Positions 4,462 to 8,633 of a DNA stretch of 64,000 nt are shown here, piece after piece. The stretch is from Candidatus Adlerbacteria bacterium (lineage in GTDB: Bacteria; Patescibacteriota; Minisyncoccia; Phycocordibacterales; SBAW01), in assembly GCA_026397405.1 (NCBI GenBank), contig JAPLUW010000002.1, positions 40,214 through 104,213 of the forward strand, read 5' to 3'. The notes beneath the pieces were generated by a model. That model did no database searches and was not told the DNA's origin. It saw only the letters and a list, made by a program, of their open reading frames with translations. The translations under genes and the position numbers were made by a program. Positions within the stretch are counted from its first letter, which is position 1. Every line of letters starts with the position of its first letter.

Positions 4462-5058
4462 ATGTTAGTCGTAGATATTGAAGCCAGCGGCCTGGATGCC
4501 AAGAAAAACTCTATTGTGAGCATTGGGGCCTTGGACCTCGACCACCCGGAAAACCAGCTTTACGAAGAATGCCGGGTTTGGGACGGCGCCCATATAGAAG
4601 AGCAGGCCCTGGAAGTAAACGGCTTTACCCGCGAGCAAATAACCGACCTTGCTAAGCAAAGCGAGGGCGATTTGGTCCACAAGTTTAAAATCTTTGCCGA
4701 AGGCGTTGCCGAGCGTACCTTGGCCGGCCAAAACGTGTCGTTTGACCGCGATTTTTTGCAGGCAGCAGCTGCCCGTGCAGGCCACACCAGCTGGCCGTTT
4801 GCACACCGCACTATAGACACCCATACCCTGTGTTTTATGCATATGGTTAAAAGGGGAGTGACACCCCCTGTAGACCCGGAAAAGCACCATTCCAGCCTTA
4901 ACTTGGACGCTGTGCTCAACTACTGTGGCATTCCAAGCGAACCGCAGCCCCATAACGCCCTTACGGGGGCAAAGTCGCATGCTGAGGTTATCTCCCGTTT
5001 GCTCTACGACAAAAAGCTGCTCCCAGAGTTCGAAGCGTTTGAAATCCCTTGGATATAA
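4462..5058 (+). CDS. DEDD-family 3'-5' exonuclease (DnaQ/epsilon-like)
   Basis: Exo I motif [10 protein letters not shown], Exo II-like FDRDFL and a C-terminal His region. 198 aa. Confidence 0.6.
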
Positions 5059-5152
5059 GCCAAAAAAACCTTATATAACAACATTTTTTATCGTCAAGGC
5101 GATATCCACAGGAAGTGATGGGGAAGGGGGTTTATATGTCAATACCCTCCTA

Positions 5153-5181
5153 TTGACCCCTTGACATATTTTTGATAATGT
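5153..5181 (+). promoter_or_regulatory. candidate sigma70 promoter (TTGACC-N17-TAATGT) upstream of the 5271 gene
   Basis: Motif spacing read directly from the sequence. About 90 nt upstream of the ATG. Confidence 0.3.
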
Positions 5182-5270
5182 ATTGTTTAGTCGGCGGTCG
5201 AGCCGGCTTTTTTCGTGCCTGGCATACCGCCGGCCGTACCACTTAACCCTAACCCTATGCCACTACATTC

Positions 5271-5705
5271 ATGCCTCTTACTCTTGGCCTCGCTCTGGCG
5301 CTCTCTGCGGCACTAGGAACAACCCCCGCAACCACTACAACGCCAGTCCCAACTATCATGTCGCCTCAGGCGCAGACAGTCCGGGAGTATGTACAGACCT
5401 ACTTTGCCGATGAGCCTATTATGGTGGACATCGCGCAGTGCGAGTCGCACTTTCGCCAATACAACAAAAGTGGCGCCGTTTACCGTGGCGTCCAAAATAA
5501 CCAAGACGTTGGGGTGATGCAGATAAACGAGCGCTACCACTTAAACACTGCCGTGAAGACGGGCTTTGACCTCTACAGCCTTGAAGGAAACACCGCCTAC
5601 GCGCGCTATTTGTACGACAAAGAAGGTACCACGCCGTGGGCATCGTCCGAGCCCTGCTGGGGCAAAACAAAGAACGCAAAGTTGCTTGCTCTTGCAGGTA
5701 AATAA
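5271..5705 (+). CDS. secreted lytic transglycosylase (SLT/GH23-like) domain protein
   Basis: Signal-peptide-like N-terminus (LGLALALSAALG). AQCESHF...GVMQINERYH resembles the SLT catalytic E-S...GLMQI pattern. Confidence 0.5.
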   Translation: MPLTLGLALALSAALGTTPATTTTPVPTIMSPQAQTVREYVQTYFADEPIMVDIAQCESHFRQYNKSGAVYRGVQNNQDVGVMQINERYHLNTAVKTGFDLYSLEGNTAYARYLYDKEGTTPWASSEPCWGKTKNAKLLALAGK

Positions 5706-5729
5706 AGTTTGATTCTAAGAGCACAAAAA

Positions 5730-5757
5730 CCACTCCACTAAAAAGGAGTGGTTTTTG
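5730..5757 (+). terminator. rho-independent terminator (ccactcc-loop-ggagtgg + T5)
   Basis: A 7-bp GC stem followed by TTTTT, directly after the stop at 5705. Confidence 0.6.
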
Positions 5758-5759
5758 CT

Positions 5760-6043
5760 ATGTAAAAATAGGGAAGTCAGTTCCCTATTTTTTAAAAAGA
5801 AAATCGCCAGCATGGATAGCTGGCGAAAAAGGGGTACCCCTCGGGACGTGTTGGGAATGAGTTTGGGGCTCACTCGGCTCTTCTGGGGGTCAGAGGAACG
5901 GAGTACTCTTTCCAAACCATGCACGAACGCTCGTACATGCATGTTGTCCCAAGGGGCCTGCTGGAAGTTCGCCGGAGAGGGTAAAGTCCAGGGCGAATCC
6001 AACAGAACGGTCTGCCCATATCCTATACCTTGTCGGACAAGAG
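5760..6043. ncRNA. candidate structured RNA / GC-rich non-coding segment (unclassified)
   Basis: A 285-nt segment with no plausible ORF. Two further hairpins at 5766-5790 (tagggaa..ttcccta + T-run) and 5803-5830 (tcgccagc..gctggcga flanked by A/T runs) precede a G/C-run-rich block (ggggtacccc, ctgggggtcag, ccaaggggcc). I could not match it to RNase P, tmRNA or SRP. Confidence 0.2.
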
Positions 6044-6364
6044 TCAACCATTCTTTCTGAAGCTATCAAAGTACTCCTCTCTGAGTGTGGCGACTTCTTC
6101 CACCACCTCTTTGGCTGCGTGTATGTGTGCACACGCAAGACCTGTTGGTGCAGATAACATAAGGACTGCTAGGGCTGCAAGTAGCCCTACCTCAAGGGGG
6201 CTATCTAAAGATATGAAGGCAAAATAAAAGCAGAGACCCCACATGACGCAGAGCACCCTTAGAACCCTGCGCCAAAATCTCAATTCGGATTCTGCCTCGT
6301 ATCGCCTTTCAAAAGGCTCTGCGAGAACTACCTGAATAGCCATGGCCGACCTCATGAACTTCAT
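6044..6364 (-). CDS. hypothetical small membrane protein (2 TM)
   Basis: 106-aa ORF; the alternative start MAIQ is preceded by GAGGT. Two hydrophobic helices. No family recognised. Confidence 0.4.
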   Translation of the reverse strand: MKFMRSAMAIQVVLAEPFERRYEAESELRFWRRVLRVLCVMWGLCFYFAFISLDSPLEVGLLAALAVLMLSAPTGLACAHIHAAKEVVEEVATLREEYFDSFRKNG

Positions 6365-6812
6365 CCACAGGAGCGTGGTTAAAATTAGAGTAACAGATGA
6401 AGATAGGCGGTCAATAGTTTCTGTCTATTTTCAAACGTATCTGTGTGGGGAAGTAGCTCATAGGAGATGTGTAGTGCGGCACGTAACCACACAGCGTGTT
6501 CAAAGGAACCCTAGTCTTCTAGGCTAATATGAGTCGCAAAAGATATATTGTGCGACGTATAGTTACGAACAAAGAGGGCTCCCCCAAGCTACATACGATT
6601 CTTTACAAAAGAAAAATTTATAGACATTTCTTTTACCACGTCCCTACCCTCGGGGTCTGTAAGAAAATTTCCCCGGAGAATCTATCAACCCTTTTCAAAA
6701 TTTACTGTCAGAATTTTTATTAATAAAACGGGGAAGTACTCCCCTACCAGTTCTATTCCCTTCCAAGTAGAAGTGTGGTATTTTGTGGAAGAAAGCACAT
6801 GGAGGCAGCTGC

Positions 6813-7361
6813 ATGACGGAGTCTTTTGAAAGCCAGCAACTTGGTGATATCACAAAGTGCTGGACGGTTCATTACGGATTTCTTTCGCTCAGGAAAAAGA
6901 ACGTAGTGGTCCGTGCACAACAGGTTGCAATTGAGGGAGAAGGCAACCTCGCCAAAATTGCGACCGCCAAGATAACCATCTTGTATAACGGTATCCTCGC
7001 CTACCAGCGCGAGATTCCGTACCACATGCTATTGGGCAAGAACATGCTCGCGCTGCAAGTCTACACGATGCAGCAGTCGCCGAAGTACATGAATAAAGAG
7101 TTTCGGGCTATCATGTTGCATTTTGTTTTGTTGTGCGACAAGAACATGCCCGGCTATACAAAGGTCTCCTGGTATGGACGAGACCCCCACATCAAACCGA
7201 ATACCTACCGCGACGACTTCCGTCCTGTAGACGGCTACGGCGACTACACCGAACAAGACTCCAAGGCGTTGAGTAGAGGCGCCCTGTTCTTTATAGGCGT
7301 GAGCCTCCTTTTAATTGGCGCGTTTGGGCTCGGGGTTGTCTTCCTAAATCTACGATCTTGA
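6813..7361 (+). CDS. hypothetical protein with C-terminal TM anchor
   Basis: The ATG at 6813 is preceded by GGAGG at 7-nt spacing (the track start at 6783 is TTG). The C-terminus FFIGVSLLLIGAFGLGVVFL is hydrophobic. Confidence 0.45.
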   Translation: MTESFESQQLGDITKCWTVHYGFLSLRKKNVVVRAQQVAIEGEGNLAKIATAKITILYNGILAYQREIPYHMLLGKNMLALQVYTMQQSPKYMNKEFRAIMLHFVLLCDKNMPGYTKVSWYGRDPHIKPNTYRDDFRPVDGYGDYTEQDSKALSRGALFFIGVSLLLIGAFGLGVVFLNLRS

Positions 7362-7386
7362 GAAGTTTCATTTTTCCTTGTTGCTC

Positions 7387-7416
7387 ACCTGCCCCTACCG
7401 GCAGGTTTTCTTTTTT
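7387..7416 (+). terminator. rho-independent terminator (acctgcc-cctacc-ggcaggt + T-run)
   Basis: A 7-bp stem followed by tttcttttttt, downstream of the stop at 7361. Confidence 0.55.
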
Positions 7417-7423
7417 ACATAAG

Positions 7424-7453
7424 AAAATGCCACCCGGGTGGGGCGGCATTTTT
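7424..7453 (-). terminator. hairpin flanked by A- and T-runs (aaaatgcc...ggcatttt), bidirectional terminator; serves the minus-strand gene ending at 7472
   Basis: An 8-bp stem with an inner GC-rich loop stem. Confidence 0.45.
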
Positions 7454-7471
7454 ACGCGGAGATAGCGGAGG

Positions 7472-7630
7472 TCAGTGGAGCGCTGCGTTGCCTAAAATAG
7501 CAGCAATCACCGCCACGATTACAAACAGCAGTAATTCGTAGCTGTCGTTGTTTGGCCGGTCCGTGCCAGCAAAGTGCTTGCCGCCAGCCGCAGTACCTGA
7601 CAAATTGGCAGTAGGCGCGTTCCCTTCCAT
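7472..7630 (-). CDS. small tail-anchored membrane protein (52 aa)
   Basis: The ATG for MEGNAPT... is preceded by AGGAGG at 7 nt. The C-terminal helix is LLLFVIVAVIAAILG. Confidence 0.4.
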   Translation of the reverse strand: MEGNAPTANLSGTAAGGKHFAGTDRPNNDSYELLLFVIVAVIAAILGNAALH

Positions 7631-7730
7631 GTTGAGACCTCCTTTGAAGGACCTCTTCTTTTCTCCATAACTGTAGGACACCTACTGAAAAGGTGCAAGA
7701 GCCCTTGTTCATCGGTGGTTTTCCTTTAAA

Positions 7731-7979: not shown

Positions 7980-8633
7980 ATGCAAAACTATGCTGTCCAA
8001 CTGAAGTCCGTCCTTTCGCCCGCAGAAACAGCGCTATTTAAACGCCTCTCTTCCGCAAACAAAATACAAGACTTTTTAGATGAAATGCCGATTAATTTTG
8101 AATACCAAGGCGACACTATTTATTCGCCCCGGCAGGTAGTAGCACAGGGTAAGGCGCACTGCATTGAAGGCGCGCTGTTGGCCGCCGTTGTACTTGCCTA
8201 CCACGGCCAGCGGCCACTGTTACTCGACTTACAAACCCTTCCCTACGACGACGACCATGTCGTAGCGTTGTTTAAGGAAAACGGCTACTGGGGTGCTATA
8301 AGCAAAACAAACCACGCTATTTTACGGTGGCGCGACCCGGTGTACAAAACAGTTCGCGAACTTGCGATGTCGTTTTTTCACGAGTACTACATGAACGACG
8401 GTGTTAAAACTCTGCGTGCCTTTTCTCGCCCGTTTGACCTGCGCCGCTATGCGCCCGGAGACTGGGTTGTGTCGGAGGCTCCTCTTGAGCGTATTGCAGA
8501 AGAGTTGGACGACTCGCCCCACTTCCCTATTTTGCAGGGCATAACTAAAAAATCGCTTCGCAAAGCATCTCTTGCTGAATGTAAAATACTCGACGTTGTC
8601 GAATGGGAGTCAGAAAAAAAGAAACTGCTCTAG
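7980..8633 (+). CDS. hypothetical protein, possible papain/transglutaminase-like cysteine peptidase fold
   Basis: GKAHCIEGALLAAVVLAYHG (Cys at a helix N-terminus) followed about 32 aa later by DDDHVVALF..GYWG, which is a Cys-His arrangement. AGGAGG upstream. Confidence 0.4.
   Translation: MQNYAVQLKSVLSPAETALFKRLSSANKIQDFLDEMPINFEYQGDTIYSPRQVVAQGKAHCIEGALLAAVVLAYHGQRPLLLDLQTLPYDDDHVVALFKENGYWGAISKTNHAILRWRDPVYKTVRELAMSFFHEYYMNDGVKTLRAFSRPFDLRRYAPGDWVVSEAPLERIAEELDDSPHFPILQGITKKSLRKASLAECKILDVVEWESEKKKLL

Follow-up and report, generated by a model that had tools for sequence, protein, structure and literature searches.

In the 64-kb stretch of Candidatus Adlerbacteria DNA analyzed here (the window), the minus strand from ~6013 to 5797 probably encodes an independently transcribed, structured small RNA (sRNA) of ~215 nucleotides (nt) that represents an unclassified family found in a few Candidatus Adlerbacteria lineages. 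We put the probability of this reading at about 0.6. The broader claim that the minus strand specifies a structured, noncoding RNA under selection is very likely correct. A preliminary description of the locus had proposed an sRNA or, alternatively, an RNA derived from the 3' untranslated region (3'UTR) of the minus-strand gene at 6044 to 6364. A structured noncoding RNA on the minus strand stands, as seen from a strand-specific fold, structure kept at ~30% divergence, the existence of homologs, and a terminator. Between the two origins, the evidence leans toward an independent gene, given a promoter-like motif and, in one homologous locus (L154), a terminator upstream of it.

Fold and conservation of the minus-strand RNA

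The genome that contains the window belongs to the Candidate Phyla Radiation (CPR). The block at 5827 to 6043, to the right of hairpins at 5730 to 5826, comprises ~190 nt without a conserved open reading frame (ORF). It had been called GC-rich and devoid of any credible ORF. Its G+C content is slightly raised (0.51 to 0.565 versus a window mean of 0.487), so the first term holds only mildly, while the second is borne out. The ORFs between 5827 and the stop codon at 6044 run across the terminators, as had been pointed out, and the overlapping ORFs (110 amino acids [aa] on the minus strand and 101 aa on the plus strand) are not kept in L003. L003 is a Candidatus Adlerbacteria metagenome-assembled genome (JBAXLB010000001.1) and the closest of 80 Paceibacteria loci found via the 144-aa SLT-like protein encoded beside the RNA. 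Because indels of 1 and 2 nt, which are not multiples of three, separate the window block from L003 and the overlapping ORFs are not conserved, the block is noncoding. The predicted parts of the transcription unit, in the direction of reading, are as follows.

6020-6047, minus strand: promoter-like site TTGACT-16 nt-TAGGAT, whose -35 hexamer overlaps the TGA stop of a 106-aa ORF
6006-6013, minus strand: predicted unpaired 5' end, AGACCGUU, with the likely +1 at the A of 6013
5958-6005, minus strand: P1, the 5' hairpin, with a pyrimidine-rich apical region (..ACCCUCUCC..)
5836-5957, minus strand: three-way-junction core (P2/P3/P4), the same junction in independent minimum free energy (MFE) folds of four homologs
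5957-5946 with 5847-5836, minus strand: P2, the closing stem in the MFE fold
5939-5918, minus strand: P3, a hairpin in the MFE fold
5917-5850, minus strand: P4, a long hairpin with the C-rich apical loop ACCCC and the internal loop GAGCCCCAA
5827-5835, minus strand: C/U-rich linker ACCCCUUUU from the junction domain to the terminator, with an unpaired probability of 1.0
5794-5826, minus strand: T3, predicted intrinsic terminator of the RNA, with the stem 5826-5819/5811-5804 and the U-tract 5803-5794

The minus strand of 5831 to 6043 has an MFE of -89.9 kcal/mol, compared to -64.0 ± 4.6 kcal/mol for dinucleotide shuffles (z = -5.6; 0 of 200 shuffles), while the plus strand has a z-score of only -0.5 (59 of 200 shuffles). 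Because the fold depends on G-U pairs, this asymmetry indicates that the element is an RNA read from the minus strand and not a DNA palindrome or cruciform. A coarse scan that covered the whole window, with 210-nt windows and 12 shuffles, placed the segment 6th among 910 strand-windows. A strongly “structured” region at 52.9 to 53.9 kb appears to consist of ordinary small coding genes.

The window and L003 are ~93 to 94% identical overall (blastn) and ~97% identical in the left flank (mostly 97 to 100% in the 1 kb to the left of 5800), whereas identity is 64 to 79% across the RNA and the adjacent 106-aa ORF. Folded alone, the L003 copy has the architecture of the window RNA, with z-scores of -4.7 (minus strand) and -2.1 (plus strand). 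The aligned RNAs span 185 columns with 55 substitutions and 7 gap columns, and the MFE over the aligned RNA is -73.8 kcal/mol in L003 and -80.7 kcal/mol in the window. When the window RNA was given the same 55 substitutions with the same spectrum at random positions, the MFE was -50.7 ± 4.6 kcal/mol, and 0 of 400 variants reached -73.8 kcal/mol; with unconstrained substitutions, 2 of 400 did. All 120 cells of the 60 consensus pairs in this alignment hold standard pairs, with 4 double and 9 single consistent changes, and only 32 to 43% were paired in a control in which the partners were slid by 1 to 3 columns. In P1, one change is compensatory, and three others are one-sided and consistent. P2 has lost 2 bp in L003, with matching deletions in its two strands. 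The sequences of P3 and distal P4 are almost wholly different in L003, yet hairpins of equal size stand in the same place, and the GACCCC of the P4 apical loop is common to both RNAs above an almost entirely replaced stem. The fold is maintained by selection despite fast sequence divergence.

A wider search covered homologs of the SLT-like protein and their contigs, and a covariance model was built from the window and L003. The model matches L154/L155 over its full length (E = 9e-7). A blastn match (E = 1e-4), a shared convergent 109-aa gene, and conserved core motifs tie L150/L151 to L154. L154 and L150 each fold independently into the P2/P3/P4 junction plus a terminator, and L154 also has a P1 hairpin, with the loop CCUCCCAA. 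The architecture of the family consists of a 5' hairpin, the three-way junction, a C/U-rich linker (equivalents are present in L003, L154, and L150), and an intrinsic terminator. Elements invariant in all four RNAs are GG(G)A/UCCC in P2, UGGUUU(G/A)G at the start of P4, a G..CC internal loop, and AAC closing P4. A manual alignment anchored on P2, the P3 base, and the P4 base contains 25 pairs, 11 of them compensatory and 13 invariant, with 1 of 91 cells unpaired. Covariation is robust at the inner P2 pair (C-G versus U-A) and at the first P4 pair past the bulge (G-C versus A-U), as are the coordinated changes in stem length and the complete turnover of P3 and distal P4.

Divergent variants occupy the same place in L152 and L166, and L163 keeps only the 3' end of the RNA, with the body replaced. 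The three-way-junction RNA was not found in L004, L156 to L162, or L164 by covariance model or helix-descriptor search, and among the 80 Paceibacteria loci it was found in L003 only. Scanning Joint Genome Institute (JGI) metagenomes with a conserved 18-mer returned 39 loci, one of them true by the model (L106, of the L003 type); a viral scan with a 16-mer gave chance matches only, and phage and plasmid collections gave no match. Contigs of the organism of the window are present in SRR20698652, and the L003 type is represented in JGI Ga0194035. No paralogs were found in the window by blastn, covariance model, or helix-descriptor search. As sampled, the family appears to be patchy and accessory, not housekeeping, and confined to a few Candidatus Adlerbacteria lineages.

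This patchiness bears on the alternative that the block is a nonfunctional spacer or decayed gene with chance structure, or a DNA-level element such as a recombination site. The position in a strain-variable island, the lack of the locus in most relatives, the reduction of the L163 copy to its 3' end, and the similar z-scores of some coding windows would all fit such an explanation. Fold energy retained over 55 substitutions, double changes and coordinated indels that keep the helices, stability that is strand asymmetric, unlike that of a DNA cruciform, and the same junction in four lineages argue the opposite, and we consider chance structure or a DNA-level element very unlikely.

Predicted start and end and probable independence of the transcription unit

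Both hexamers of the promoter-like site are kept in L003 and L154, while the spacer varies. In the window, L003, and L154, TAGGAT is followed at a constant distance by cAGAC, whose A lies 7 nt past the -10 hexamer; this would put +1 at the A of 6013 and make the RNA ~215 nt long. A motif like TTGACT-16-TAGGAT precedes the RNA in three of the four homologs. Among 162 loci, this 28-nt pattern was found only beside family members. The features that flank the RNA are as follows.

5271-5705, plus strand: SLT-like gene, 144 aa, convergent on the RNA, with a weak SLT-domain match
5730-5756, plus strand: T1, intrinsic terminator of the SLT-like gene, with the stem 5730-5736/5745-5751 (CCACTCC/GGAGTGG) and the T-run 5752-5756
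5768-5794, both strands: T2, a second, bidirectional terminator-like hairpin, with the stem 5768-5775/5781-5788, A- and T-runs on both sides, and the core AGGGAAGTCAGTTCCCT
6044-6364, minus strand: gene for a 106-aa orphan protein, the upstream neighbor of the RNA, with hydrophobic stretches, probably membrane spanning, and without a Pfam family

An intrinsic terminator was defined as a G+C-rich stem-loop followed directly by a U-tract on the transcribed strand. T3 has this form on the minus strand (8 pairs, 6 of them G-C, with the tail TTTTCTTTTT) and T1 on the plus strand, while the T2 stem is flanked by A- and T-runs. The same three hairpins had been predicted as a terminator of the 5271-5705 gene at 5730 to 5757, a second terminator-like stem at 5766 to 5790, and a hairpin at 5803 to 5830 that would terminate on the minus strand. 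Each was recovered: the T1 stem with its T-run, the T2 stem, and the T3 stem 5804-5811/5819-5826 followed by UUUUCUUUUU (5803-5794). A terminator consensus scan of 5000 to 7000 listed 10 sites, including T1 and T3, against 2.5 ± 1.8 in shuffles. The T3 stem is invariant in L003, with two changes in the loop, and each homolog has its own terminator at the T3 position. T1 is the same in L003 except for one base, and an A-run upstream of it makes it bidirectional.

The gene upstream of the RNA differs between homologs. In L154, the promoter-like motif comes directly after the terminator of an unrelated 49-aa membrane-protein gene, and in L150, the upstream gene is divergent. Because of this upstream terminator and this divergent gene, an independent sRNA gene is favored over a 3'UTR. 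Alternatively, the RNA could belong to the 106-aa mRNA, either as its structured 3'UTR or as an sRNA processed from that region; it would then be made by read-through from the promoter of the ORF and would stabilize or regulate the mRNA. The arrangement in the window and L003 is compatible with this: no terminator separates the stop codon from the RNA, which starts directly past it, divergence is equally raised in the RNA and the ORF, as if they were one inherited block, and a small hairpin across the promoter-like region also keeps its pairing. CpxQ and SroC are 3'UTR-derived sRNAs of enterobacteria, and the RNA of the window and L003 is like them in following a coding region in the same direction and sharing the terminator of the mRNA. 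It differs from them in that a promoter-like motif overlaps the stop and the L154 and L150 homologs are not downstream of a related gene. The 106-aa gene has two relatives only and was not found near the L154 and L150 RNAs examined. Conservation of both hexamers around a spacer that varies also speaks for a promoter, and a 3'UTR origin is rather unlikely, although it keeps an appreciable share of the probability.

Transcriptional riboswitches with three-way-junction aptamers offer another comparison, in that the junction is immediately followed by an intrinsic terminator. An aptamer-like junction acting with T3 as a cis-acting switch would control read-through antisense to the convergent gene, and in every homolog a gene on the opposite strand does converge on the RNA. 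This gene varies, being SLT-like in the window and encoding a 109-aa protein in L150 and L154, and there is no match to a riboswitch model. Control of the riboswitch type is unlikely, and in our estimate highly so, because no same-strand gene follows and T2 and T1, which lie between T3 and the convergent gene, block read-through. Riboswitches also differ from this locus in that the flanking genes vary here.

Several observations weigh against an independently transcribed, structurally conserved sRNA. In L150, the TTGACT motif and the -10-like box are separated by a terminator-like hairpin, and in the window and L003, where no terminator separates the 106-aa ORF from the RNA, read-through or 3'UTR processing is possible. 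The promoter, +1, and 3' end are predicted at the level of consensus matches. Several coding segments reach z-scores similar to that of the RNA in the whole-window scan, so the z-score alone is not decisive, and the plus strand of L154 also folds well (z = -3.9 versus -3.0 for the minus strand). The column-shuffle control is weak with two sequences, the observed counts being equaled in 34 of 500 shuffles. The four-way alignment was made by hand to fit the structure. Its compensatory count depends on the alignment, and MAFFT suggests a more parsimonious P4a with one compensatory pair plus coordinated indels. The covariation check on homologous loci, which the preliminary description had put forward, does yield a common junction in four folds, but formal covariation statistics are weak because there are only four distinct sequences, which form two close pairs.

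Comparison with known RNAs and possible function

Membership in an Rfam family was judged by a covariance-model score at or above the gathering threshold of the family. No Rfam 15 family matched the 64-kb window at the gathering score. With E ≤ 10 over 5400 to 6800, nearly all matches fell on the terminator hairpins, and every score was far under threshold (STnc290, the highest, reached 26.8 versus 60 bits), and with E ≤ 1 there was no match on L003, L150, L154, or L156. The earlier suggestion to look for RNase P RNA, transfer-messenger RNA (tmRNA), signal recognition particle (SRP) RNA, 6S RNA, and riboswitches thus turned up no catalogued family. A tRNA/tmRNA scan of the whole window found none, and a full-text literature search found no paper on sRNAs or structured noncoding RNAs in Adlerbacteria or CPR bacteria.

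A string resembling the 5' strand of the RNase P P4 helix had been noted in the block. The string, GAGGGTAAAGTCCAGGGC, is present at 5977 to 5994 on the plus strand and is the complement of the apical part of P1. The connection to RNase P fails: the plus strand lacks the fold, and the string is not conserved in L003, which has GGAGAGGGCTGTCAGGGAC at this position. Bacterial RNase P RNA has a core of 330 to 400 nt, and its P4 helix is made from two distant conserved strands. Apart from the 18-nt string there is no likeness to RNase P RNA (RF00010/RF00011), as the window has neither the P4 3' strand nor the other conserved regions, and the RNA is ~215 nt long. RNase P RNA was rejected, with the string on the unfolded plus strand, not conserved, and without a model match at E ≤ 10, and the resemblance is best read as due to chance. 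The chance that the locus holds a divergent or fragmentary RNase P RNA, or another catalogued RNA such as SRP, 6S, or tmRNA, is negligible: nothing but the string speaks for it, no Rfam family matches the window, the region, or the homologs, the plus strand is unstructured, and the RNA, unlike a housekeeping one, is lacking in most of the Adlerbacteria loci that were examined.

In type I toxin-antitoxin systems, an RNA is antisense to the mRNA of a toxin that is usually under 60 aa. Such a system was rejected here, since in a crude test the best duplex with the 106-aa mRNA was matched by 12 of 40 and 9 of 40 shuffled RNAs. It is also disfavored by the size of the protein (106 aa) and by the distribution of its gene, which did not turn up beside the L150 and L154 RNAs examined.

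Unpaired bases across the four RNAs are 38% C, 29% U, 23% A, and 10% G, while G makes up 33% of the paired bases. As for C-rich sites, the P1 loop of the window RNA carries CUUUACCC(UCUCC), the apical and internal loops of P4 carry ACCCC and GAGCCCCAA, respectively, and the linker carries ACCCCUUUU. Every homolog has at least three CCC/CCUC/CCCC motifs, and equivalent C/U-rich loops are found in L003, L154, and L150. RsaE/RoxS of Firmicutes are base-pairing sRNAs whose C-rich loops bind G-rich regions of mRNAs; these RNAs and the 6C sRNA are roughly 100 nt or less. The C-rich loops of the 6C sRNA of Actinobacteria bind G-rich mRNA regions independently of RNA chaperones (PMC6486639). The RNA described here is like 6C and RsaE/RoxS in being a small stand-alone RNA with stable hairpins, several unpaired C-rich motifs, and an intrinsic terminator. 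It has no sequence or covariance-model similarity to them, so that the likeness is one of functional analogy only. Furthermore, at ~215 nt it is about twice as long, it has a three-way junction where they have two simple hairpins, and its loop sequences are not conserved family-wide.

By this analogy, we tentatively suggest a trans-acting regulator, a role that we consider possible but short of probable, in which the junction would present C-rich loops to G-rich ribosome-binding regions. In the mechanism suggested, the junction would act as a rigid scaffold showing G-poor, C-rich single strands (CCCUCUCC, GACCCC, GCCCCAA, and ACCCCUUUU), and these motifs would anneal, with no help from a chaperone, to G-rich ribosome-binding regions of target mRNAs. 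In the main reading itself, the sigma-70-like promoter TTGACT-16-TAGGAT would start transcription and T3 would end it, and T1 and T2, being bidirectional, would insulate the RNA from the convergent SLT-like gene. Of the properties of a trans-encoded sRNA, the RNA is noncoding and its structure is conserved among homologs, the latter being judged from few sequences in a manual four-way alignment. The C-rich loops are suggestive but do not establish the mechanism, which is a further point against the reading.

A real structured RNA could work without pairing to mRNA, by binding or sequestering a protein (as a sponge or as the scaffold of a ribonucleoprotein [RNP]) or by binding a small ligand. 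Conservation is highest in the junction itself, which makes binding of a protein or ligand a serious rival. The most conserved elements are junction proximal (GGGA/UCCC in P2, UGGUUU(G/A)G, the G..CC internal loop, and AAC), while the loop sequences differ between subgroups. RNAs of the CsrB/RsmZ type are sponge RNAs with several similar motifs, and the several similar motifs in each RNA of this family resemble them. On the other hand, no gene for a partner protein is conserved alongside, no riboswitch or protein-binding RNA model matches, and the patchy distribution speaks against a core RNP. Protein or ligand binding is in our view unlikely, though well worth keeping in mind.

CPR organisms have tiny genomes, live as episymbionts of host cells, and are not yet culturable alone. 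For this poorly studied group, the RNA is a candidate for studying RNA-based regulation, and its position in a variable island and the quick turnover of its helices around a fixed junction point to an accessory, possibly strain-specific role. If it is expressed and its targets are found, it would give a first handle on posttranscriptional control in the group; even otherwise, it would be a new family suitable for submission to Rfam. The narrow distribution of the family limits the weight of this candidate.

The variable island and its other contents

A strain-variable island extends between the SLT-like gene and a 217-aa transglutaminase-like gene (7980-8633), with the RNA at its edge. The RNA is placed at the edge because identity to L003 drops across the RNA and the 106-aa ORF and outright replacement lies further right. 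The island is a mosaic when 5830 to 7725 of the window is compared with 4560 to 5957 of L003, which has an extra 130 nt; 6565 to 7725 is replaced by unrelated sequence relative to L003, and identity is back to 94.6% from 7725. Its cargo consists of ORFs of 192 and 69 aa in the window and of 76 aa in L003, while in L004 the whole interval is taken up by one 132-aa ORF. The island has the look of a hotspot at which small genes and RNAs recombine.

A search of 5.8 billion proteins gave only 2 relatives of the 106-aa protein. Between the window and L003, its ORF has 22, 18, and 36 differences at the three codon positions and an in-frame 6-nt indel, with start and stop kept, and it is a real coding gene because of these codon-position differences and the in-frame indel. 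The protein and its L003 counterpart are 71% identical, compared with ~97% DNA identity in the gene flanks on the left, and it appears to be a fast-evolving orphan. The gene and the RNA have diverged together.

T2 recurs in equivalent islands. Its 15-nt hairpin core has 1 site in the window versus 0.09 expected by chance, and the exact core occurs elsewhere in L003, three times in L156, and once in L158, in islands of other Adlerbacteria. The core GGGAAGTCAGTTCCC (loop GUCAG/CUGAC) is at 5768-5794 in the window, at 4501 in L003, and at 5784 in L158. On a minus-strand reading of L156, it is found at about 2214, 1801, 1583, and 1270, i.e., as three to four copies within 1 kb that stand between small genes and sRNA-like units. 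It is almost unchanged in Adlerbacteria islands whose SLT-like protein is only ~69% identical. Looser versions are present at 6730-6744 of the window (GGGGAAGTACTCCCC) and at 5186-5200 and 5583-5595 of L003. By its sequence and spread, the T2 core resembles a propagated bidirectional-terminator cassette or one like repetitive extragenic palindromic (REP) elements.

A 141-nt noncoding block at 6425 to 6565 (L003, 5284-5424; in part L150, 3140-3200) is 93% identical to L003 amid unrelated sequence. The hairpin GTCGCA-N12-TGCGAC is part of this block, and the promoter-like site of the 106-aa gene follows downstream. The reading of the block as another structured RNA was rejected, with z-scores of -1.3 and -1.65 on the two strands and a short ORF that is not conserved.

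The same island in other genomes holds noncoding promoter-to-terminator units of 180 to 300 nt with long closing stems and C-rich loops, all on the minus strand: L156 at 1775-1593 and 860-600, L159 at 4440-4230, and L152 at 1690-1525. The L156 and L159 units both contain ..CCCC(C)G(G)AGCAG(G)AC.... These units may be further, distantly related sRNA families at the hotspot.

The 192-aa ORF of the window (6783-7361, plus strand) has, by eye, a relative in L163 (1280-1609, minus strand) with the pattern ..AY.R.IP....GK......V.TM... This relative stands directly upstream of the remnant of the RNA 3' end, and its place there therefore suggests that cassettes move between island positions. We consider it doubtful, though not to be dismissed, that the RNA is one module of a fast-evolving cassette system of RNAs and small membrane proteins at an Adlerbacteria recombination hotspot, which would lie between the SLT-like gene and the DUF5670/transglutaminase-like genes. 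If this were so, a junction core with rapidly replaced arms and C-rich loops could serve immunity, defense, or interaction with the host cell, and the locus would be a new RNA-based accessory system and not an ordinary regulatory sRNA.

Some features of related loci concern the same neighborhood. In L159 to L162 (Adlerbacteria of the RIFOXYC1_FULL_48_26 type), the right ends carry, a few kb away from the island, a gene that faintly matches SIR2_2, which hints that the neighborhood can hold defense-type genes. A small protein gene stands beside the SLT-gene terminator on the minus strand of L154 (4180-3985), L150 (1890-1690), L156 (1160-945), and L159 (4170-4000). These small genes have a very strong Shine-Dalgarno sequence (GGGAGGG/GGAGGG) and a hairpin-containing leader, and some of their proteins appear hydrophobic. 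In the window and L003, the RNA occupies the position held elsewhere by the small Shine-Dalgarno gene. The L154 RNA has CCCUCCC, the exact complement of GGGAGGG, in its P1 loop, a match that may be due to chance.

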